A DNA stretch of 64,000 bases. It comes from Akkermansia sp. Its GTDB lineage: Bacteria; Verrucomicrobiota; Verrucomicrobiia; Verrucomicrobiales; Akkermansiaceae. The notes below the pieces were generated by a model that made no database searches, was not told where the DNA came from, and saw nothing but the letters and a program-made list of their open reading frames with translations. Position 1 is the stretch's first letter, and each line of letters opens with the position of its first letter. Position numbers and translations under genes: made by a program. Location of the stretch: assembly GCA_024405415.1 (NCBI GenBank), contig JAKSOV010000001.1, forward strand, positions 16,685 through 80,684, in the 5' to 3' direction. Below are positions 3,628-18,042 of the stretch, in pieces.

Positions 3628-5784
3628 ATGAGCGCTGCGTTCCACCTCCTTTCCGATTCCGTGCAGGTTTCTCTCCGCGTCACGGAGCAGGGGAAACTCA
3701 TGCTGAGCTACTTCGGGGCGCGGCTTGCGGAGGCGGATGAGGCCTTTGTGGCACCTGCCTGCGAGTGGCCTCTCGCGTCCACGGATTTCGACTCCCGCGG
3801 GCTGTGGGGCAATTACAGCGGGGAGTTCGCCTACCACCTCATCCTACCTGACGGCACGCTGGGCTGGGACCCGCATGTGGTGAGCGCCGAACAGGCAGGG
3901 GCAGGGGCGCTTTCTGCGGTGTTGGCCGACCCGCGCTATCCCGAGCTGGTGCTCTCCCTGCGCCTGACATTGAGCGCGGAGGGCGTGCTGACGCTTTCCC
4001 CCACGCTGCACAACGGCTCGGCGGGTGAGGTGACGATTCTGCGCGCGCTGTCTGCGGCGTTCCCGCTGCGGGCGGAGCAGGGGTATTATCTCACGAGCTT
4101 TCGCGGCGGCTGGGCGGGCGAAAATCTTTTTATGGAGGAAGCGCCTATCGCCCGCGGCTGCACCGTGTCCTGCGGCAGCACCACGGGCGTGAAATGCGCG
4201 CAGGAGGGCACGCCCGGCTTTGTGCTGGGGCTGGGGAACGCCGCGCAGGAGGAGGCGGGGAATGTGCTGCTCGGCGCGCTCGCGTGGAGCGGCAATTACA
4301 CGCTGAGTTTTAAACACAGCACCTACGGGCAGCTTTTCTGCGGTATGGGGCATGACTTTTCTCATGCGCCGCACCGCTTGGGGGCAGGGGAATCGCTCGT
4401 GCTGCCCGATGCCCTGCTGGTGTTCTCTGACTGCGGCAAGGGAGAGGCCTCACGCCGTCTGCACCGCCACTTGCGGGAGCGCGTCATCCCGCGCGGGCGG
4501 GAGACGCGCCGCATCCTGCTCAACAGCTGGGAGGGCGTGCATTTCGATGTGGATGAAGCGACGCTGCATGCCATGATGGAGCAGAGCGCGGACTTGGGCG
4601 TGGAGCTGTTTGTGCTCGATGACGGCTGGTTCGGCAAGCGCAAGGACGACACGTCTTCCCTCGGCGACTGGACCCCCGATGCCGACAAGCTGCCGCACGG
4701 GCTCGCCGCGCTCACGGAGCATGCGCAGCGCGTGGGAATCGACTTCGGCCTGTGGATGGAGCCTGAGATGATTTGCCCCGTCAGCGAGCTGTACGCCGCC
4801 CACCCCGAGCTGGCGCAAACCCTGCCCGGCATCACCCCGCGCGTGGAACGCCACCAGCTTGTGCTCGACCTCGCCAACCCCGCCGCCGACCCCGCGGGTC
4901 GCGTGAGCGCCGTGCTCGATACCGCTCCCGGCATTTCTTATGTGAAGTGGGATTGCAACCGCAAGATGAGCGACACGGGGTCCGCTTACCTCCCCGCCGA
5001 CCGCCAAGGCAATCTGTTTTTCGACTCCGTGCGCCGCTACTACGATGGCCTTGCCCGCCTGCGAAAGGAACACCCCGCTGTCACGCTGCAATGCTGCTCC
5101 GCGGGCGGCGGGCGGCTCGACCTCGGTGCCGCTGCTTACCACGAGGAATTCTGGCTCTCCGACAACACGGACGCGCACGACCGACTCCGCATGCAATGGG
5201 CGGCGACCCACTTCTTCCCCGCGAACGCCCTCGGCTGCCACGTCACCGCCAGCCCGAACCTCTACACGGGCCGCGAAACCTCCCTCAAATTCCGCTTCGA
5301 TGTCGCCCTCATGGGGCGCCTCGGGCTGGAGCTCGACCCCCGCACCCTCACGCCCACCGACCGCGCCGCCCTCCGCGAGCGCATTGCGCTGGCCAAGCGT
5401 CTCCGCCCCATCGTCCAACTCGGCGAGCTCTACCGCCTCGTCTCCCCCTTCACCTCGCCCGACTGCGCCGTCCTCTACCGTCACGGCAAGAGTGCCCTCG
5501 TCCTCGCCTACACCACCGACCGCGCCTACACCGACCAACAGACTACGATTCCCCTCCGCGGCCTGAATCCGCACGCCCGCTACCGCATCGAAGAACTCGC
5601 CCCCGATGAGACAGGTCGGCACTGCCTTCTCTCATCTGCCTCCTCCTTGTCACGCCGTAGCCTTGGCGAAGACGGATGCCCCGACACTCCCCTCTCCGGC
5701 TCCTACCTCCTCACCCGCGGTCTCCCCCTCCGCTGGACCCGCCCCCTCCAATCCTGCGTCCTGCTGCTCACGGAAGAAGCGTGA
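3628..5784 (+). CDS. Alpha-galactosidase, glycoside hydrolase family 36
   Basis: 718 aa with GH36 hallmarks LNSWEGVHFDVDE, FVLDDGWFGKRKDDTSSLGDW and YVKWDCNR. The C-terminal region carries the 31 nt dispersed motif (LSRRSLGEDG). Confidence 0.85.
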   Translation: MSAAFHLLSDSVQVSLRVTEQGKLMLSYFGARLAEADEAFVAPACEWPLASTDFDSRGLWGNYSGEFAYHLILPDGTLGWDPHVVSAEQAGAGALSAVLADPRYPELVLSLRLTLSAEGVLTLSPTLHNGSAGEVTILRALSAAFPLRAEQGYYLTSFRGGWAGENLFMEEAPIARGCTVSCGSTTGVKCAQEGTPGFVLGLGNAAQEEAGNVLLGALAWSGNYTLSFKHSTYGQLFCGMGHDFSHAPHRLGAGESLVLPDALLVFSDCGKGEASRRLHRHLRERVIPRGRETRRILLNSWEGVHFDVDEATLHAMMEQSADLGVELFVLDDGWFGKRKDDTSSLGDWTPDADKLPHGLAALTEHAQRVGIDFGLWMEPEMICPVSELYAAHPELAQTLPGITPRVERHQLVLDLANPAADPAGRVSAVLDTAPGISYVKWDCNRKMSDTGSAYLPADRQGNLFFDSVRRYYDGLARLRKEHPAVTLQCCSAGGGRLDLGAAAYHEEFWLSDNTDAHDRLRMQWAATHFFPANALGCHVTASPNLYTGRETSLKFRFDVALMGRLGLELDPRTLTPTDRAALRERIALAKRLRPIVQLGELYRLVSPFTSPDCAVLYRHGKSALVLAYTTDRAYTDQQTTIPLRGLNPHARYRIEELAPDETGRHCLLSSASSLSRRSLGEDGCPDTPLSGSYLLTRGLPLRWTRPLQSCVLLLTEEA

Positions 5785-5882
5785 CGCTTCACCCATGAGG
5801 ACCGTCCCTCATTCCGTACACTCTTTCCGAGCAAAAATAGCGGTGTATATACACCGTGATGTAATGAATGCCGGGGTGAGGT

Positions 5883-6272
5883 GTGCGTGATTTTCACCTC
5901 GCCGAAGAAGCCGCCGCTTTCATTGCCGACAATCTCGACATTCCCTTCACCACGGATGAGATGAACCGCTACATCCGCACCCACCACACGGAACATCCCG
6001 ACTTTGCCCAAACCATCCCCTCCTCCTTCGCTCGCCTCGTCGCCTACGACCGCGCACAAGCCGCCGAGTCCTCCCCCTTGTCACGCCGTAGCCTTGGCGA
6101 AGGCGGAGCCGCCGCTTACTACATCGCCGTCTTCCAACACTTCGGCTACGCTCTCATTTCCGCCGACGGCACCCGCTCCCTCTCCGAAATCGCCGCCTAC
6201 TCCGACTACATCAACGCGCTCCGCTCCTATCAAGGAAGTGCAACAGAAAATGCCCCCTCTGCTGAATCGTAG
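5883..6272 (+). CDS. Hypothetical protein (GTG start)
   Basis: 129 aa ORF with host-like GC-rich codon usage and no recognisable domain. It contains a second copy of the 31 nt motif (LSRRSLGEGG). Confidence 0.4.
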   Translation: MRDFHLAEEAAAFIADNLDIPFTTDEMNRYIRTHHTEHPDFAQTIPSSFARLVAYDRAQAAESSPLSRRSLGEGGAAAYYIAVFQHFGYALISADGTRSLSEIAAYSDYINALRSYQGSATENAPSAES

Positions 6273-6616
6273 GACACTAAACGCTACACAGACTGACAGC
6301 GTAAAAGGAACAAGCTCTTTTCGATTTTGTTTGCGCATTCCAACACATATGCGCGTCTCCTGAGAGCGCGCTCTTCTGCTTTTGTCGCCACACGCACTCC
6401 CTTAAACATGATGCCGGAACTGATTGGTCTCGTAACTTTAGCTCTTTTAGCAGTAGAGGGGTCTTTTATTTGCGAGCTAAATGCATCACTAGCGTTGAGA
6501 TTATAATTATTGATGTTTGTTTGTGATGCAATCTAATAATTATTATTTTTCTTGACTAGAAGAAATGGAGTTTTAAATTATTATGGATAAGTCTTTATGT
6601 CAGAAAGCTATTCAAT

Positions 6617-9229
6617 ATGGAGAAGAAAATAAATGTAAATTCTATTGCGAAATGGGTAATTGTTCCCCTTTTATTCATGCTGTTTTTTGTTTTTCTTCCT
6701 CTTGCAACTGATCGATTGGGAGAACTCATAATCGTATGGAAAAACTGCCTTTCATGCTTTACACCAAAAAGTGTCGATATCTTGACCATTATCATATCAG
6801 TCGTTATTTTGGAGATTGCTGTCTTATGTGTACATAGGCGATGGCTGTACTGTTTTTCAGTTATTCCAGTGATATGTGTGTGTGCTTTTTGGATTCTGTA
6901 TTACTCAGAAGATAAGCACTGGTTGCTATTTAGGAATTTTGCCGTTTATATTTTCATGGGGATGGGGGTAATCGTTTCTCTTCCCTTTTTTCATGAACGC
7001 GCGAGAAAACAAAAGGAAACTGATGAAAAAGTTGATGTGGGATATGGAAGAGTTGGAATATACAACGCTGGTATAGAACGCATTATTCGCTTGATTCTTA
7101 GAGCCAATGTTGGAAGGAGTATTGCTGTTTTTGGTACATGGGGAAGCGGTAAAACTCATTTTCTGAATTACCTAAAGTATCGATTAAGGGAACTCAACAA
7201 ACATAATGATGGTACTTGTCCGAAAATATCAGTAAAGCACATTAATCTGTGGCAATGCAACGATTTAGAAGATGCATGGAAGAGTATTGTCGACGGATTG
7301 CATGAGGCAATAAGAGGAAAAGCTCAGAGCCCATTCAGAATAGTAGCGCAAAGATTGCTACAGGTATTAAGTCGTTCAGAGATTTCAATTTTAGGCGTTA
7401 CTGGTGCATTAGATACTTTGGTTAATAAAAGAAATAACGCAGGCGTGGAGATTGCGGCTAATACATTAACTGAGAAGATGAATTATCCAACTAACGCAGC
7501 TGTCCTGATTATAGATGATGTTGAACGCGCAGATATCGACATAGTAAATGCCCTTCTTCCATTGTTGGAGAGATTACAAAAAATAAGTGGCTTGGTAGTG
7601 GTTTGTGCAATCGCCAGAGATGAATTGGAAATGCGCTATGAAAATGCAGGACTTTCATCGCAATTGCTACAGGGGTATATGGATAAATTATTTGAGCAGT
7701 CGATATGTTTGCCAACAATACCTAAGCTCCATGCTTCAATCGAGTTTAAAAGGGCAATCGAGAAAAATTATCCACAATGTAAGTTTTTATTGCAATTTTC
7801 GCAGAGGTATATCGTCCCTTTTGATACGCCTCGTCAGATGATGCGCGTTGTGGAACGATTGTCGTCTATAGAACTAGATTATATGACCGATTCGCTCATG
7901 AAAAATGAGACTATTTCATGCGTTTTCTACATGGAGATATTGCGATTACTTTATCTGGGGTTTCTTCAAGATAGTAGGTTCCTTAAACAATTAAAAGCTT
8001 TGCGGGATGTTATTAATGAAATAAAAAAATCAGATTTGTCAAATAATGATGATGAGTCGGTACATCCCGAGGAGCATGATAATAGACTATCCTCAATTAA
8101 TGTTTTTGATGAACTAATAGCTGAATACGCACCTGGTAGCCGATTATTGCCATCTATATGTAATTCTTTGGCGTATTTGGTTAATAGTAATTGCTATGAT
8201 GAATTGCTGAAGGCATATCACATGAGTTATACTAAAAAAGTTTCTTTGAGTGATGTGGAATTATCGCATGTCGTAAGCGAAGTCGCAAATGCACATTATT
8301 ATTCTCAAATTAGTACTTACTTGCATTCATATTGTACTTTTGAAACTAATGTAAACAATTTTTCGGAGGCAACAGCTTCGTTTTTGAAGATTGTACTCTC
8401 TCGCGCTTATGAGAGCACAAATTTCGCAAGATTGCTATATAATGTTGTCAAAATTGAAATGACGTTTAATGGTTCATGTCGTCACCTTATCAATAGAAAA
8501 GAATTTCTTCTTGATTTGATTATTACTAATATCAAGAGTGAAAGAGGTTCGGGGGTTCTAGAAAAATATTTTTTGCATGCGTTGGTATTGCTGTCTCGTA
8601 CTATGCCTTTACATGAATTATATAAATCCGTTGATCAACTATTGCTGTTTGAACTAAATGCTAGTGCATTTTTGACTGGTTTTTGGTATAGTTCCCACCA
8701 TGACGATTTAAAGAGGTTAAAAAAATCAAAGGCTACAGAATCCCTATATTCCCTATTTGCACGTAGAATTATACAAGATTACTCTGGGTATAATTCTATA
8801 CAGTTGTCAGAACTTGGAGATGTTAACATTATTCGCTTTTTTGAGAAGCATTCGTCGCAATTTTCTCCGGATGTGTATGAGAATGCCTATAAAAAGGCGC
8901 ATCAGGGGAATTTGGTGACGTTGTTTGAAAATTATTTTTGTGTAGTTTTAAATGATAATCAGACGCTTTATCCCAATACTATACGGATAGCAAATCTTAT
9001 GTTTATAAGTCAAGGGGCAAAAGAATTTTGGGCGAAATTAAATATTTCTCAGAAAAATAGGACAATAGATATTATTGCGAGACTTAGAGGAATAATCAAC
9101 CAGAGTACTAACTCTCAATTTAGGCAGCTTCTTTCTATTATTGAATTGGTTGGACAGTATGTAAAAGTAGCTAAAATTCGCAGAAATCCTAAAAATATAG
9201 GTGTCGCCGTATCGAATATTAAACGGTAA
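6617..9229 (+). CDS. KAP-family P-loop NTPase with four N-terminal transmembrane helices
   Basis: 870 aa, AT-rich. Four hydrophobic helices in the first ~120 aa. Walker A AVFGTWGSGKTHFLNYL and Walker B VLIIDDVERAD, followed by a long helical C-terminal region. Confidence 0.8.
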   Translation: MEKKINVNSIAKWVIVPLLFMLFFVFLPLATDRLGELIIVWKNCLSCFTPKSVDILTIIISVVILEIAVLCVHRRWLYCFSVIPVICVCAFWILYYSEDKHWLLFRNFAVYIFMGMGVIVSLPFFHERARKQKETDEKVDVGYGRVGIYNAGIERIIRLILRANVGRSIAVFGTWGSGKTHFLNYLKYRLRELNKHNDGTCPKISVKHINLWQCNDLEDAWKSIVDGLHEAIRGKAQSPFRIVAQRLLQVLSRSEISILGVTGALDTLVNKRNNAGVEIAANTLTEKMNYPTNAAVLIIDDVERADIDIVNALLPLLERLQKISGLVVVCAIARDELEMRYENAGLSSQLLQGYMDKLFEQSICLPTIPKLHASIEFKRAIEKNYPQCKFLLQFSQRYIVPFDTPRQMMRVVERLSSIELDYMTDSLMKNETISCVFYMEILRLLYLGFLQDSRFLKQLKALRDVINEIKKSDLSNNDDESVHPEEHDNRLSSINVFDELIAEYAPGSRLLPSICNSLAYLVNSNCYDELLKAYHMSYTKKVSLSDVELSHVVSEVANAHYYSQISTYLHSYCTFETNVNNFSEATASFLKIVLSRAYESTNFARLLYNVVKIEMTFNGSCRHLINRKEFLLDLIITNIKSERGSGVLEKYFLHALVLLSRTMPLHELYKSVDQLLLFELNASAFLTGFWYSSHHDDLKRLKKSKATESLYSLFARRIIQDYSGYNSIQLSELGDVNIIRFFEKHSSQFSPDVYENAYKKAHQGNLVTLFENYFCVVLNDNQTLYPNTIRIANLMFISQGAKEFWAKLNISQKNRTIDIIARLRGIINQSTNSQFRQLLSIIELVGQYVKVAKIRRNPKNIGVAVSNIKR

Positions 9230-9456: not shown

Positions 9457-10038
9457 TCAGCCCTCGGCGTAGGAATAGCGGATTTGCAGGGGAAGATTGA
9501 ACACGATGCGTCCATCCTCCAGCAGATGAAGTTTGTCGCAGTCGTAGCGAGAAGTAGACGGGTGTTCGAAATAAGTGTGATGGTACAAATAGTCGCGCAG
9601 TTGGGTGCGTTGGTAGGGCTGAAAGGTGTGTTCTCTGATGCGGAAATGTGGAGGAATGGTGATGTCTCCATCCCATGCTTCGTGCGGAGTCATGCCGAGG
9701 GCTAGGGCTTCAAGAAAACGCTGGATTTTGAGTCGGTAGCGCGTGCCGATGCGGAGCGGGTCGGCAGCGGTCAATTCTTCGCAGAGCTCATCCGTCTTAC
9801 AGGTGCAGCCATGATGACGAACAAGAAGTAGCATCTCCGCGAGGACGGCGGGCATGATTTCATCCACATTGAGCAGATTTTCTTTGAATGGCTGCGGAAC
9901 ATCGACCCAAACAAATTTATCGTTCCTCACTTCGTAGGTGAAGCTTGTCTGCGGGGAAGCAGGGAGAAGAATCGTAGACATAGAAAGGGCAGGGGCTCGG
10001 TGTGGTATACCGGACTCCTGCCCGCCTGTCAACAGCAA
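9457..10038 (-). CDS. Hypothetical protein
   Basis: 193 aa ORF of intermediate GC (a likelier start is MSTILLP at 9981). By eye it weakly resembles the 10423-10791 product (DPLRIG..YRLKIQRFLEALALG vs DPLHLG..YFYKMRCLLRAYFLG). Confidence 0.45.
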   Translation of the reverse strand: MLLTGGQESGIPHRAPALSMSTILLPASPQTSFTYEVRNDKFVWVDVPQPFKENLLNVDEIMPAVLAEMLLLVRHHGCTCKTDELCEELTAADPLRIGTRYRLKIQRFLEALALGMTPHEAWDGDITIPPHFRIREHTFQPYQRTQLRDYLYHHTYFEHPSTSRYDCDKLHLLEDGRIVFNLPLQIRYSYAEG

Positions 10039-10825: not shown

Positions 10826-12157
10826 TTAAATGGAACGGATAAATAGACTATATTGAATCCACTGTTTAAGAAATTTTGCAGTGCTGGATATATGCGACAT
10901 CAGGAACCAGTCATCCTCATTCTTAAAAAATGAATCCTCCTTATTAGTGCCTTGAGCAAGATAATAATCAATGACTTGTTGAAGCTCTATGTATTTCATA
11001 CTTGGTGAAGTGAAAATTCTTAAATCGCATGTCTTTAACCCAAGCCGCTCAAATAGCTCGTGCGTACTTATTGATTTTTCTGCTAGCTGAAACGCTGTAT
11101 CTGTATCGAAGGAAATTAGATATGAAATAATGACGATGATATATAAAGATGCGTTTGAAATGTTTTCTAAGGAGTCTATGTTATTTAGCTTTAGAAGATG
11201 GGTTATAGTCCTTACCCAACTTTCTATTTCTCTAAGCTGTAATTTTTTCTTTTTAATAATCGCGAGAATGAGGTCTGGCAACCCCATAGGCTCTGTAAAG
11301 TTATAGTTGTTATGTAGCAAGTAGAAAAAATATTGGCAGTTGTAATCTCTCGTATTCCTATGTTCAAGTGCAATTTCGGGTAATTGAAGAGTCGTCTTTA
11401 TAAATTTATTAAGATATGTTTCAGCATTATTTTCTCTTAAACCATGAGTGCTGCAGATTGAATCAATTAGGGAGTGCTTGTTCATAATCAAAATGAACTT
11501 GCAATCTTTGCTCGTAAATAGGTGCTTAATTGTTTCAAGCATTTGTAAAGCAAATCCTGGGCGACACCTATCTAATTCGTCTATGATTACTATTAGTTCT
11601 TTATCTCTTCTGGCAAGGTCTAGCAATTCTTTTGCTGTGTCAATTCGAAGCCTATCCGTTCCTGCTGCCTGTAAGAAATCCTTGAATTGCTGTAATGTGG
11701 GATTTTCTGCTTTCTCCTGCGCTTTGCTAGTTGCTTCAGAAATCCCTTTTAAATCAAGTCCTGATCCGATGTGGATGATTTGGTTTGCCAATTCTTTCGT
11801 TGCGGCTATAGCCATCGCACTGCACAGCTTAAATCCAGCTTTCGTGAATTGCTCATGCTCTTTAGCGTCCGTTTCCGAATAAAGATTTGCTACAAAAAGG
11901 GGAAGAGGGTCTGCGGCGTAGTCAAAGATAGACGCATTCCAGTAAATGCATTTGTGCGTTTTTTCGTGATTCTCATTGAGGTATTTCATCATGCGCATGG
12001 CATGGGTGCTTTTTCCTGCCCCCCACGGACCTTGCAAGACAACGGGAGATATTGCCTCAGCAGGAGCGGAACAAATAAGTTCGCACATTGATTGCGCGAT
12101 TGCTTCACGTTTAAAAATATCTTCGGGTAGTTCGATGACTTGTGTCTCGTTTGGCAT
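10826..12157 (-). CDS. KAP-family P-loop NTPase (soluble)
   Basis: AT-rich. Walker A VLQGPWGAGKSTHAMRM and the KAP signature IVIIDELDRCRPGFALQMLETIKHLF. The ORF extends to 12223, but that stretch is the groEL terminator hairpin, so MPNETQV at 12157 is preferred. Confidence 0.8.
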   Translation of the reverse strand: MPNETQVIELPEDIFKREAIAQSMCELICSAPAEAISPVVLQGPWGAGKSTHAMRMMKYLNENHEKTHKCIYWNASIFDYAADPLPLFVANLYSETDAKEHEQFTKAGFKLCSAMAIAATKELANQIIHIGSGLDLKGISEATSKAQEKAENPTLQQFKDFLQAAGTDRLRIDTAKELLDLARRDKELIVIIDELDRCRPGFALQMLETIKHLFTSKDCKFILIMNKHSLIDSICSTHGLRENNAETYLNKFIKTTLQLPEIALEHRNTRDYNCQYFFYLLHNNYNFTEPMGLPDLILAIIKKKKLQLREIESWVRTITHLLKLNNIDSLENISNASLYIIVIISYLISFDTDTAFQLAEKSISTHELFERLGLKTCDLRIFTSPSMKYIELQQVIDYYLAQGTNKEDSFFKNEDDWFLMSHISSTAKFLKQWIQYSLFIRSI

Positions 12158-12184
12158 GGTGGTAGGAGGGAGGTGAATAGTAAG

Positions 12185-12228
12185 TTTAAAATCAATGCGG
12201 GGTGTCCATCGGGTGATGGACACCCCGC
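12185..12228 (-). terminator. groEL rho-independent terminator
   Basis: On the minus strand: GCGGGGTGTCCATC-ACCC-GATGGACACCCCGC, followed by ATTGATTTTAAA. Confidence 0.65.
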
Positions 12229-12280
12229 GAAAGGGTTAGTTAGGCTGTGACTTGGATTTATGAAACCGTGCCTGCGGCAC

Positions 12281-14037
<1,757 letters not shown>

Positions 14038-14322
14038 TTAGTCAATGACGGCGAGAATATCGCTCTCGTTCAGGATGACATAGGTCGTGCCGCCGTAAGT
14101 GACTTCCGTGCCGCCGTATTTGGTGATGAGCACCTTGTCGTTGACGGCGACATTGAAGTTGATGGGGTTGCCGTCCTTGTCGTGACCGCCCGTGCCGAGC
14201 GCACGAACAACAGCCTCCTGCGGCTTCTCCTTAGCGGTATCCGGCAGGAAAAGACCGCCGGCGGTTTTCGTTTCAGCTTCCACGCGCTCCACGAGCACAC
14301 GCTGTCCAATCGGTTTAATCAT
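14038..14322 (-). CDS. groES: Co-chaperonin GroES
   Basis: 94 aa. MIKPIGQRVLVERVEAETKTAGGLFLPDTAKEKPQEA... Confidence 0.97.
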   Translation of the reverse strand: MIKPIGQRVLVERVEAETKTAGGLFLPDTAKEKPQEAVVRALGTGGHDKDGNPINFNVAVNDKVLITKYGGTEVTYGGTTYVILNESDILAVID

Positions 14323-14385
14323 AATAGTGTGTTGTTTGGTTTAGTTGTTGAGTTGTATAAAGAAGATAAAAGAAAAATGTGTTGT

Positions 14386-15066
14386 TTAATTTGTGCCGTT
14401 TTTAATAATTTTCATTGTGTTGTCAATGTATTTTCGTGGCTCTCCAGAAACAGAATTTCGCAGTAGAGATAATGAATTTTGAATTTCCTTTTGGGGAATG
14501 CAATCAAAGCGATGCCAAAGTAACTCGTAATGATGAATTCTGCTTCCTTCTATGTACGCTTCAGTATCTTGGAAATAAATGGGAAGATCTTTTGCGTCTT
14601 CTTCTGCCGAATGGTGAACTACAACACCATAATACTTCGTGCTTTCCTGAAGTTGAAATGCGTCAATGAGTGCTTGTCCGAAAAACAACTGCTTTGTAGT
14701 ATCACAAGTTATCTTGCCTTTAGCAATGGCTCCCTTCATTGGTATTTTTTCACCAATAGCATAGCGCATAATGTCCAGCGTAACGTTGGATAAAGAGATT
14801 AGGCTTTTGCGTGAGTCATTTTTGCTGAAAATAACTATGCTGTCAGAAAAAAGACTAATTTGTAGTCCTTCTTCTTTGTGTGATTCCATGGATTCTGAAA
14901 TCTTTTTTTGCAAACCTTGGAGAGTGTTCAATACTTGAGCATGCGTGCTTCTGGCTACTCTATCTTTAAATCCTAGTATATCTAAAAATGCGACAAAACG
15001 GGAACATGTAATAGGTGCGCGCCCTTTTACAATAATAGGAGAGGATGTCCCAGATGTTTCTTGCAT
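14386..15066 (-). CDS. Palm-domain nucleotidyl-cyclase-like protein (class III cyclase / GGDEF / minimal Cas10-polymerase-like; tentative)
   Basis: AT-rich. Three motifs are spaced as in cyclase palm domains: AFLDILGFKDRV, ISLFSDSIVIFS and MKGAIAKGKI. The start MQETSG at 15066 lies 1 nt after the stop of the upstream GIY-YIG gene. The longer ORF to 15186 would overlap that gene by 118 nt. Confidence 0.45.
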   Translation of the reverse strand: MQETSGTSSPIIVKGRAPITCSRFVAFLDILGFKDRVARSTHAQVLNTLQGLQKKISESMESHKEEGLQISLFSDSIVIFSKNDSRKSLISLSNVTLDIMRYAIGEKIPMKGAIAKGKITCDTTKQLFFGQALIDAFQLQESTKYYGVVVHHSAEEDAKDLPIYFQDTEAYIEGSRIHHYELLWHRFDCIPQKEIQNSLSLLRNSVSGEPRKYIDNTMKIIKNGTN

Positions 15067-15067
15067 A

Positions 15068-15367
15068 TTATTCAACGGTGTTTTGTGTAATGACGTAGCA
15101 ATAAACAATTTTTGCAGAGTCATCGCCACCTCCTGGTGCTCCTCGCATACCGCGTTTTTGATAAATCTTTTCAATCTCTCTAGCAACAGTAGATGATTGA
15201 GCTGTGCGATAAATCCACCACATGCCTTCGCGTTTTACGTTGTGCTCATGGAACAATCTTCTGTTGATGTCGGCAGTTACGCCAACATAAAATTCGGAAT
15301 AATATGTTTTTCCGCTCTTATTTATGTGCTCGTCGAAATCTTGTATGATTTCTTCTTTCGTTTTCAT
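15068..15367 (-). CDS. Small GIY-YIG (URI) nuclease-domain protein
   Basis: 99 aa, AT-rich. KTYYSEFYVGVTADINRRLFHEHN followed by AREIEKIYQKRG fits the GIY-YIG core pattern. Confidence 0.55.
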   Translation of the reverse strand: MKTKEEIIQDFDEHINKSGKTYYSEFYVGVTADINRRLFHEHNVKREGMWWIYRTAQSSTVAREIEKIYQKRGMRGAPGGGDDSAKIVYCYVITQNTVE

Positions 15368-15455
15368 GGCGAAATGTTATTTGTTTTAAGTTCGGCGCGG
15401 CCGGAGGCCGCGCGTTACTTAAATGATTTGTACATTGTACTTCGTACTTTGTACA

Positions 15456-15457
<2 letters not shown>
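15368..15457. repeat. GC hairpin plus 4 x heptamer block abutting the dnaK stop
   Basis: AAGTTCGGCGCGGCCGGAGGCCGCGCGTTACTTAAATGA, then TTTGTAC-ATTGTAC-TTCGTAC-TTTGTAC. A near-identical heptamer block occurs at 58462-58494. Confidence 0.75.
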
Positions 15458-17378
<1,921 letters not shown>

Positions 17379-17436
17379 CTATTGGTTTGTTGTTAATAAG
17401 TGGGGCGACTCACACGGAGCCGTACACTTCCCTTGT

Positions 17437-17452
17437 TGCAAACGCTGTGCCA
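17437..17452 (-). promoter_or_regulatory. Sigma-54 (RpoN) -24/-12 promoter upstream of dnaK
   Basis: The minus strand reads TGGCAC-AGCGT-TTGCA, an exact fit to TGGCAC-N5-TTGCW. It lies ~70 nt upstream of the dnaK ATG in the correct orientation. Confidence 0.6.
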
Positions 17453-17480
17453 AAAGTACAACGGTGACACTGTTGCACTG

Positions 17481-17493
17481 CAAATCGTTGATT
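17481..17493 (-). promoter_or_regulatory. IHF consensus site between the upstream palindromes and the -24 element
   Basis: The minus strand reads AATCAACGATTTG, which matches WATCAANNNNTTR. It is centred ~35 nt upstream of the -24 box. Confidence 0.4.
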
Positions 17494-17561
17494 ATCAAGA
17501 GAAATAGGAAAGTGTGGCCCATAAAGGCTTTCAAACTCGCCACAGGGCGGATATGTAGGCG

Positions 17562-17620
17562 TGCGGCAAAATGCCGCATTCGGACAAAATGCCGCAGGCT
17601 GAGTGCGGCAAAATGCCGCA
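17562..17620. promoter_or_regulatory. Candidate enhancer (UAS) array: TGCGGCA-AAA-TGCCGCA palindromes
   Basis: Two perfect 17 bp palindromes (17562-17578 and 17604-17620, centres 42 bp apart) flank one degenerate copy (17579-17596). The array lies ~110-170 nt upstream of the -24 element. Confidence 0.5.
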
Positions 17621-17623
17621 GGT

Positions 17624-17700
17624 GCAGGCAAGTAGGATTTTAATCCTACTTGCCTGCGCGCGCGTGCCAAAAGGATGAATTAAAAATTCATCCTTTTGGC
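17624..17700. other. Two adjacent perfect long hairpins
   Basis: 17624-17657: 15 bp perfect stem GCAGGCAAGTAGGAT, loop TTTA. 17666-17700: 16 bp perfect stem GCCAAAAGGATGAATT, loop AAA. No U-tract on either strand. Confidence 0.85.
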
Positions 17701-18042
17701 GGGGGAAAATCAAATATTCTGCTTGTCTCGCTTTGCCTGTTTGTATACACTTTGTTCGCTTTTCCGCCGACTTGCCGCAAGGAGGGTGCTTCGTCACTCA
17801 TCAGCGGAGAGCACCGACCTAATCTGCTGAGGTGACGTTGCCACATAGGATAACGGAACAACACATGCAAGGTCGGTGGAGACTGATAATATGTCATTGA
17901 AGACAATAGTAGAGTTCTGCATTCTGCTCCTGGAGATACTGCTGTTTTTCCTTGGGGTGAAGTAAGGCTCCGCGCGGTCGGGCTGCAACTCGGCCGCGCG
18001 TTATCTCTTAAACAAAATCGTACGGACTTCCTTTTCGGGGGA

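Follow-up and report, generated by a model that had tools for sequence, protein, structure and literature searches.

We analysed a 64,000-nucleotide stretch of the genome of an Akkermansia sp. (contig JAKSOV010000001.1, positions 16,685 to 80,684 of the forward strand), hereafter referred to as the window, in which two small AT-rich genes, named A and B, lie between the chaperone genes dnaK and groES. Our best reading is that this pair is a horizontally acquired two-gene module, which has no promoter of its own and is moved and inherited as a unit. All genes of the locus are encoded on the minus strand. Gene A (15068-15367) encodes a 99-residue protein containing FYVGVTADINRRLFHEHN, and gene B (14386-15066) encodes a 226-residue protein with the motifs FLDILGFKD, FSDSIVIFS, and GAIAKGKI. 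At the junction of the two genes (15064-15070), the stop codon of A (TAA, 15070-15068) is separated by the single base 15067 from the start codon of B (ATG, 15066-15064), which suggests that their translation is coupled. The guanine-plus-cytosine (GC) content ranges from 0.35 to 0.41 over the pair (about 0.38), compared with 0.60-0.69 in dnaK and groEL. This arrangement had been described in an initial annotation made from the sequence alone, and all of its elements (the junction, the AT-richness, the 63 nucleotides between B and groES, and the four quoted peptides) were verified in the sequence.

Comparison across genomes makes us highly confident that A and B form a mobile, functional and co-inherited unit. 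Homology searches recovered 477 homologues of B and, by family profile, 1077 protein clusters for A, while the A family counted 1273 clusters at 50% identity and E ≤ 0.001; a search for A-family representatives listed 150 proteins, all of them close family members. A homologue of B is located immediately downstream of A in 8 of 8 loci recovered via A homologues, and a homologue of A is located immediately upstream of B in all loci recovered via close B homologues (about 45 close B loci sampled). The same arrangement was found in a scan of one genome per species, with A directly upstream in 24 of 24 close-B loci (at least about 40% identity), which belong to Bacteroides, Phocaeicola, Parabacteroides, Prevotella, Alistipes, Muribaculaceae, Paludibacteraceae, Akkermansia, and one untyped metagenome-assembled genome (MAG). 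Among 32 further distinct A-B sequences, the genes are −4 to +22 nt apart in 30, and the two outliers probably result from mis-picked start codons. The pairwise identities of A and B are correlated (r = 0.81; 0 of 2000 Mantel permutations reached this value), and the ratios of nonsynonymous to synonymous substitution rates (dN/dS) relative to the closest allele are 0.18 for A and 0.24 for B, indicating purifying selection. In 39 of 44 loci, the pair is poorer in GC than its flanks. From this co-occurrence, A appears to be an obligate partner of B in this clade. The expectation that the genes would be linked elsewhere holds for every close B locus and fails for distant B genes, which stand alone. 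No conserved third gene was found, and the neighbours vary between the loci examined. Chance open reading frames (ORFs) or pseudogenes, considered as an explanation of the pair, are ruled out by dN/dS values of about 0.2 and by the many homologues of both proteins.

Some copies of the pair are disrupted. A MAG of Akkermansia muciniphila carries a decayed pair (L042, ~5700-6460), in which A is matched at only E 4e-13 and B is fragmented, and in four other genomes (L026, L037, L048, and L049), B is broken into two or three ORFs. The decayed copy and the four split genes are either pseudogenes or assembly errors.

The borders of the insert could be placed by comparison with relatives that have an empty site. 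An identical 94-residue GroES is encoded on seven other contigs for which DNA was retrieved. In the five of these that reach the end of dnaK (L062-L066), dnaK and groES are separated by 127-166 nt with no insert, and DnaK of the window is 99-100% identical to DnaK of the empty-site relatives. In blastn alignments, L062-L064 match the window as far as 15384-15435 next to dnaK and match it again from 14343-14352, about 27-30 nt before the groES start codon. Because homology to the empty-site relatives stops and resumes there, we place the foreign segment at ~14353-15383 (~1031 bp), which comprises A and B, preceded by a leader of 16 nt and followed by a trailer of ~33 nt. On the dnaK side it is preceded by a native region (15385-15455) with two hairpins, one TGTACA-rich (~15429-15455) and one GC-rich (~15385-15423). 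The insert begins just past the second, GC-rich hairpin, which is also present in the empty-site relatives L064 and L065. In the 63-nt spacer between B and groES (14323-14385), the last ~27-30 nt (14323-14352) are the native groES leader, and the remainder is the trailer of the insert. Outside the insert, the conserved, GC-rich upstream flank is formed by dnaK (15456-17366, a 636-residue ORF) and the conserved downstream flank by groES (14038-14322, with its ATG at 14322) and groEL (12281-13930). By these alignments, the pair is foreign DNA, inserted precisely into the dnaK-groES spacer, of which it replaced roughly 75-100 nt of native sequence.

The same site carries other alleles of the pair in related bacteria. 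An Akkermansia sp. MAG (L020), whose DnaK, GroES, and GroEL are 90%, 89%, and 93% identical to those of the window, has A and B in the same dnaK-groES spacer, with a B protein only 51% identical to that of the window and a GC content of 0.48 over the pair. Metagenome contigs add same-spacer alleles in which B is 89% (L069) or 60% (L070-72) identical to that of the window. Divergent alleles at this position were thereby found in three other Akkermansia-like contig sets, with a taxonomic label for L020 only. Synonymous divergence in the same comparisons is 0.75-0.99 in the pair and 0.32-0.48 in the flanking chaperone genes, which differ from the pair in base composition. Furthermore, in one gut metagenome (run X1), read depth was 3-6 over contigs with the insert (window 14388-14997) and 72-96 for dnaK and groES; since the depth of the insert is far below that of its flanks, insert-bearing cells make up a small minority of that Akkermansia-like population. 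The dnaK-groES site is therefore polymorphic, with empty alleles as well as several old alleles. In the sequence comparisons, repeated gain or allelic exchange fits the site better than simple vertical descent, an argument weakened by the differences in composition. As the sole origin of these alleles, divergence in situ was rejected on the basis of synonymous divergence 2-3 times that of the flanks, which is only suggestive because the base composition differs.

The insert seems to depend on its surroundings for transcription. The spacer between dnaK and A is predicted to be strongly folded (−30.9 kcal/mol, z = −5.3, two hairpins), and it contains no promoter-like site or CIRCE operator, nor was a terminator with a U-tract called in it. 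The 63-nt spacer between B and groES is predicted to be wholly unstructured (minimum free energy 0). Scans for sigma-70-like promoters and intrinsic terminators gave no site in it and stayed at or below chance, in agreement with the previous observation that groES lacks a recognizable promoter upstream, and it has no CIRCE operator. An Rfam scan of 13800-17800 detected no RNA family. Because a module without a promoter occupies the place of the dnaK-groES spacer, it probably rides on transcription of the heat-shock operon. The suggestion that groES is read through from the cassette is consistent with the absence of a terminator, the unstructured spacer and the loss of ~75-100 nt of native spacer, and groES and groEL are probably transcribed through the insert. 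No public sequencing run covers this allele well: the best DNA run contained 39% of the sampled words, and the sole RNA run covers only the flanks.

Protein B can be assigned to a known fold. In its AlphaFold2 model (pLDDT 89.5, pTM 0.85), the secondary structure elements follow the order expected for cyclase homology domains, with two additional helices after them. The palm domain, of a divergent class III cyclase/GGDEF type, spans residues ~20-182, and the pair of C-terminal helices that follows it carries an invariant PRKYID motif. In a Foldseek search of the PDB with this model, the top 50 matches are all class III adenylyl or guanylyl cyclases, with E-values down to 3.3e-8 and TM scores of 0.5-0.73 over about 190 aligned columns. 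A profile of 62 B relatives, searched against PDB sequences, has class III adenylate cyclases as its seven best matches (E 7e-4 to 9e-3) and aligns DILGF of B with FADIVGF of Rv1625c, so that D29 stands opposite its Asp. Both D29 and D75 are invariant in the 62 sequences and occupy the metal-binding Asp positions of cyclases. D29, at the end of strand 1, is part of the DIxGFK loop; D75 is found in the hairpin of strands 2 and 3, between the modelled strands 69-72 and 76-80. The palm or cyclase fold proposed in the initial annotation is thus supported by the model, the structure search and the profile search alike, and the two Asp motifs it had pointed out correspond to these invariant residues.

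The resemblance to class III cyclases (for example, Rv1625c of Mycobacterium tuberculosis; PF00211) extends to the fold, the order of secondary structure elements, the first metal-binding Asp in a DIxGF phosphate loop, the second in the strand 2-3 hairpin, and a strand with the pattern [KR]G.....G. B differs from these enzymes in that it scores below the Pfam cut-off, has no substrate-specifying Lys four residues before the second Asp, carries another helix motif in place of GDxVNxAxRxE, and has an additional C-terminal helix pair with the invariant PRKYID. In place of the Lys, the window protein has Ser and most of the family Ala (consensus IQLAxFSD). Conserved more strongly than any other motif of the superfamily as a whole, the invariant B helix FGQALIDAYxLE has, in a motif match made by eye only, Ile/Asp where GDxVNxAxRxE has Asn and Leu/Gln where it has Arg. 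The transition-state Asn and Arg, which cyclases carry on the helix after strand 5, are probably missing from B. No Pfam family matches B above its cut-off, the best being Guanylate_cyc (PF00211; 15.9 bits versus a cut-off of 21.9, E 0.0099), which only 8 of the 62 relatives match at E ≤ 0.1. The sole NCBIfam match is non-significant (E 0.14), and no family in PADLOC (2023) matches B at E ≤ 1.

B shares a two-Asp palm catalytic core with GGDEF and Cas10/mCpol proteins, and, read by eye, the FK...H spacing after strand 1 (K34 to H42 of B, eight residues) resembles the DxFKxxNDxxGH segment of GGDEF domains. These proteins differ from B in their GG[DE]EF or GGDD hairpin, which reads FSDS in B, and no CARF, SAVED or transmembrane effector, as found with Cas10/mCpol, is linked to B. 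Closer relatives are phrog_23933, a phage/prophage family of unknown function matched by B residues 23-153 (E 3.7e-18), and a family of ~300-residue proteins (L051-L059). Both have the palm domain with FxDILGFK, FSDS, and FGQALIDAY, but other C-terminal regions and no A partner; the ~300-residue family, which shares only the palm domain with B, has no conserved neighbour either. Judged by its sequence and model, B represents a new and so far uncurated lineage within the class III cyclase/GGDEF palm superfamily, and the two-metal catalytic core that it keeps is probably active. It is rather likely that B is an active nucleotidyltransferase; because it lacks the residues of a canonical cyclase for cyclic AMP or cyclic GMP, it most likely would use a nucleoside triphosphate and make a non-canonical nucleotide product.

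The affinities of protein A are harder to define. Its AlphaFold2 model (pLDDT 94.7) is a small, single compact alpha/beta domain with the order helix-strand-helix-strand-helix-strand, in which a helix (4-16) is found where the GIY strand is expected, the YVG strand spans residues 26-31, and an extra strand (87-92) is added at the C-terminus. Residues 25-47 of the window protein match the Pfam GIY-YIG family (PF01541) with 14.8 bits versus a cut-off of 22.6 (E 0.035). Among its relatives, 55 of 59 match this family at E ≤ 0.1, and of ten scanned singly, only P0233 scores above the cut-off (28.5 bits). All these matches span only ~20-24 residues, at about positions 15-37 of the 78 in the profile (the YxGxT..R...H segment). 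In hhalign comparisons, a profile of 110 A sequences reached 51% probability with Escherichia coli YhbQ over 23 columns and 4% with the N-terminus of UvrC. Foldseek against BFVD placed GIY-YIG proteins at ranks 2 and 3, with weak scores (E 0.19-0.47, TM about 0.5), and no protein bridging A to canonical GIY-YIG proteins was found among the 150 listed representatives. Like YhbQ and other stand-alone members of PF01541, A has ~100 residues and a YxGxTxDxxxRxxxH motif followed by strand-helix-strand-helix; unlike them, it has an N-terminal helix, a Gly-rich loop and a C-terminal strand, aligns over only ~23 residues, and shows no significant fold match.

A nevertheless has a distinct set of conserved residues. 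Its sequence combines a GIY-YIG-like YIG..R..H..E motif with a Gly-rich loop (GxxGGGD, conserved as GxxGGxGGGD) and, towards the C-terminus, a VYCY strand that holds Y89 and Y91. In relatives linked to B, the residues Y27, G29, H42, E66, Y89, Y91, and T97 do not vary, and R37 is conserved to at least 90%; over 110 diverse relatives, Y89 is the only invariant column. The GIY-YIG assignment of the initial annotation is weaker than proposed there: the likeness is confined to YIG..R..H over ~23 residues, falls below the Pfam cut-off and is unconfirmed by fold searches. From sequence and model, we infer that A derives from a GIY-YIG domain reduced to a minimum and possibly permuted, in which the YIG Tyr as well as Arg, His, and Glu are kept. 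The B-linked members, with invariant Y27, H42, and E66 and with R37 conserved to at least 90%, could plausibly be nucleases.

The combination of A and B does not correspond to a known system. The initial annotation had not recognized the pair as a described one, and we also found nothing for it in PADLOC, in Pfam above cut-off, among significant NCBIfam matches or in the literature; no description of a cyclase plus GIY-YIG pair was found in the literature and the searched libraries, which included the 2023 release of PADLOC, with newer defence catalogues outside the search. Pycsar systems resemble A and B in joining a cyclase-fold enzyme to a second protein and in a patchy spread typical of mobile genes. 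They differ in that PycC has canonical cyclase residues and a PADLOC model, none of which matches B, and in that their effectors combine a cyclic-nucleotide-binding domain with a TIR or transmembrane domain, which the single 99-residue domain of A lacks. CBASS relies on a CD-NTase of the Pol-beta fold, whereas B is of the cyclase type and has no PADLOC match.

The reading of function that we favour, tentatively and by analogy, is that the pair is a defence or conflict module in which the nucleotide chemistry of B controls A. Such a module would act in genetic conflict, in anti-phage abortive infection or in addiction: a trigger would lead B to make a nucleotide product, this product would switch on A, and activated A, probably oligomeric, would cut nucleic acid. 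Within such a function, we give a diffusible signal, the idea of the initial annotation, a slightly higher probability than the covalent attachment of nucleotides to A. A narrower version, which we consider unlikely as a whole, is an undescribed conflict module in which a cyclase-fold enzyme that has lost its cyclase-specific residues acts on or signals to a permuted, GIY-YIG-derived nuclease of ~100 residues that has no separate sensor domain, and in which the promoter-less pair drops precisely into highly expressed, conserved operons such as dnaK-groESL, tying its expression to host stress.

Points that we count in favour of a conflict function come from the genomic context: the KAP NTPase and HpaII fragment in the window, the ATPase, MNT, IS66, and LHH neighbours in other genomes, a DUF262 fusion, and phrog_23933. 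In the window, an AT-rich gene for a 465-residue KAP-family P-loop NTPase (10826-12223, minus strand) lies just downstream of groEL. It matches Pfam KAP_NTPase (E 3e-34) and the PADLOC candidate system PDC-S20 (E 4.9e-64), and it is strain-specific, because the homology of L062 to the window ends at 12231. It is followed by a 193-residue ORF (9457-10038, minus strand) that matches only the C-terminal part of HpaII (RE_HpaII profile 213-359 of 359, E 7e-24) and is probably a truncated remnant of this restriction endonuclease, and by an AT-rich 870-residue ORF (6617-9229, plus strand) with hydrophobic N-terminal segments and a KAP-like P-loop, FGTWGSGKTHFLNYL, recognized by eye. Together, these three genes form a defence-island-like stretch of ~5.6 kb beside groEL.

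In Bacteroidales, copies of the pair lie in variable regions, within polysaccharide loci or next to them. Examples are L017 and L018, where the pair is found between genes for a cytidylyltransferase and an acetyltransferase, and the end of B overlaps the next gene by 17 nt. Other neighbours include DUF3987, DUF4248, and HU-HIG proteins, MNT-type nucleotidyltransferases, IS66, an LHH toxin and AAA_21/OLD-type ATPases. A distant B-like domain occurs in a Bacillus plasmid island together with HNH, OLD, and ATPase genes. On the Bacillus wiedmannii plasmid p536 (L073, 4419-5735), a 438-residue DUF262 protein has a B-like palm at ~195-356 and represents a fusion of a GmrSD/DndB-type N-terminal domain with a B-like domain. 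On phages and plasmids, only distant relatives of the N-terminal domain of B were found. In 2.9 million viral contigs (IMG/VR), the pair is nearly absent, with one partial match, and is therefore host-encoded.

Several observations weigh against a conflict function. PADLOC contains no match for A or for the distant relatives either. With the substrate Lys absent and the Asn and Arg probably absent, B is unlikely to be a canonical cyclase producing cyclic AMP or cyclic GMP. The nuclease assignment of A stands at the motif level only: Foldseek against the PDB returned no GIY-YIG entry (best E 0.66), the putative catalytic Arg and Glu are less than 90% conserved in the wider family, and neither Pfam nor the model reveals a recognizable ligand-binding or sensor domain in its 99 residues. 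Among 132 neighbour proteins from 27 loci, the recurring families are mostly glycosyltransferases and sugar-modifying enzymes, and about 4-5 of the 132 are ABC/OLD-type ATPases (AriA, GajA, Old, and mad8 models). Some ATPase-type neighbours were thus found in the survey for defence islands that the initial annotation had called for, but their enrichment is weak and was obtained without a control set. Finally, the partners also occur apart. Neither of two distant A relatives that were looked up adjoins B, and B genes of 36-39% identity stand alone in two Akkermansiaceae genomes and in Ferruginibacter; as all their motifs are intact, B can function without A. The two stand-alone genes in Akkermansiaceae (L043, 5962-6672; L046, 5953-6693; 236-246 residues) share the same position between moaC and rsmI.

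A covalent form of control, as in type VII toxin-antitoxin systems, is an alternative that we regard as improbable. By possible analogy only, the pair recalls HepT-MntA, where a nucleotidyltransferase controls an adjacent small nuclease, although the fold of MntA is of the Pol-beta type and HepT belongs to the HEPN RNases, neither being homologous to A or B. MntA polyadenylylates HepT. Correspondingly, B would nucleotidylylate an invariant hydroxyl of a nuclease toxin A (Y89, Y91 or T97) and keep it inactive, and loss of B activity or of the genes would set A free. The strict one-to-one co-inheritance and translational coupling of the genes agree with such a dependence, as does the fact that B retains only a generic two-metal transferase core without cyclase-specific residues, while the most conserved positions of A are Tyr and Thr, with Y89 invariant across 110 relatives. 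B alone would be harmless, which fits its stand-alone genes. Conversely, the two distant A relatives without an adjacent B would be lethal unless another partner exists, A is only a putative nuclease, and the order of the genes, with the small one first, is opposite to what the analogy predicts. To our knowledge, no cyclase-fold enzyme nucleotidylylates a protein.

Equally improbable is a classical type II-like toxin-antitoxin or addiction pair, in which B would be a toxic nucleotidyltransferase, A would neutralize it, and loss of the pair would be costly. Like toxin-antitoxin modules, A and B are two small, tightly coupled and co-inherited genes, and the small gene comes first. Their patchy distribution, low GC content, and location in variable regions near toxin-antitoxin genes such as NTP_transf_2 agree with this. 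Members of the A family also occur without B and vary more than those of the B family, a pattern seen in antitoxins that swap partners. However, two Akkermansiaceae genomes carry an intact lone B in syntenic position, with no A to counter the toxicity it would have, and in several contexts the module lacks its own promoter. Most antitoxins autoregulate through a DNA-binding domain, and A has none.

The pair could also be a selfish homing cassette, which appears quite unlikely. Free-standing homing endonuclease genes of phages spread by cleavage and subsequent repair copying; in the same way, A would cut empty sites such as the dnaK-groES spacer, repair would copy A and B into them, and B would be cargo or a helper. 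The site itself is what one would expect from this process. As in free-standing GIY-YIG homing genes, the insertion falls precisely between a pair of highly conserved genes, and relatives have the site empty; very divergent alleles occupy the same site in several lineages, and the borders are tight, with no integrase, transposase or flanking repeats. The proteins fit less well. Homing GIY-YIG enzymes need a nuclease joined to a DNA-binding module, whereas A is a single 99-residue domain without one, and its membership in the GIY-YIG family is doubtful. Homing moreover leaves the conservation of the 226-residue cyclase-fold partner, and the purifying selection on it, unexplained, and the insertion sites in Bacteroidales are diverse.

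Ordinary signalling, in which B would be a stand-alone cyclase for a housekeeping messenger (for example, in stress or envelope synthesis) and A an unrelated gene co-transcribed by chance, would suit the cyclase fold and intact metal-binding residues of B and the position of the pair inside heat-shock and polysaccharide operons, but is very improbable given the presence or absence of the pair among near-identical strains, its minority allele in the metagenome, its foreign base composition, the co-divergence of A and B, the unrelated genomic contexts across taxa, and the missing cyclase-specific residues. The probability left over from all these readings belongs to something else.

Should the pair serve in defence or addiction, it would be an uncurated, widespread addition to the immune repertoire of major gut bacteria, and it would bring a new biochemical activity to the cyclase fold. 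Its spread covers mostly Bacteroidales and extends into Akkermansia. Many candidate systems of a comparable sort exist, and the function of this pair is one that we infer. At the dnaK-groESL locus, some of the native spacer is lost to the cassette, so that chaperone regulation may differ between strains with and without it, and heat shock may induce the cassette itself. The location is unusual and convenient for experiments, and the empty, occupied and divergent alleles at this one site constitute a natural experiment.

The surroundings of the site vary between strains in other respects. Directly after the dnaK stop codon, short tandem motifs differ by strain, with TGTACAAAGTAC in the window (15425-15455) and (A)TTACAA(A/T) repeats in L062, L063, and L066, and the native dnaK-groES spacers and hairpins of L062-L068 are of two different types. 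The dnaK-groESL block is the only part of the window shared with the close relatives L062 and L064, the homology breaking at ~17610-17624 and at 12231. The DNA upstream of dnaK and downstream of groEL is strain-variable, and the chaperone operon is thus flanked by two variable regions.

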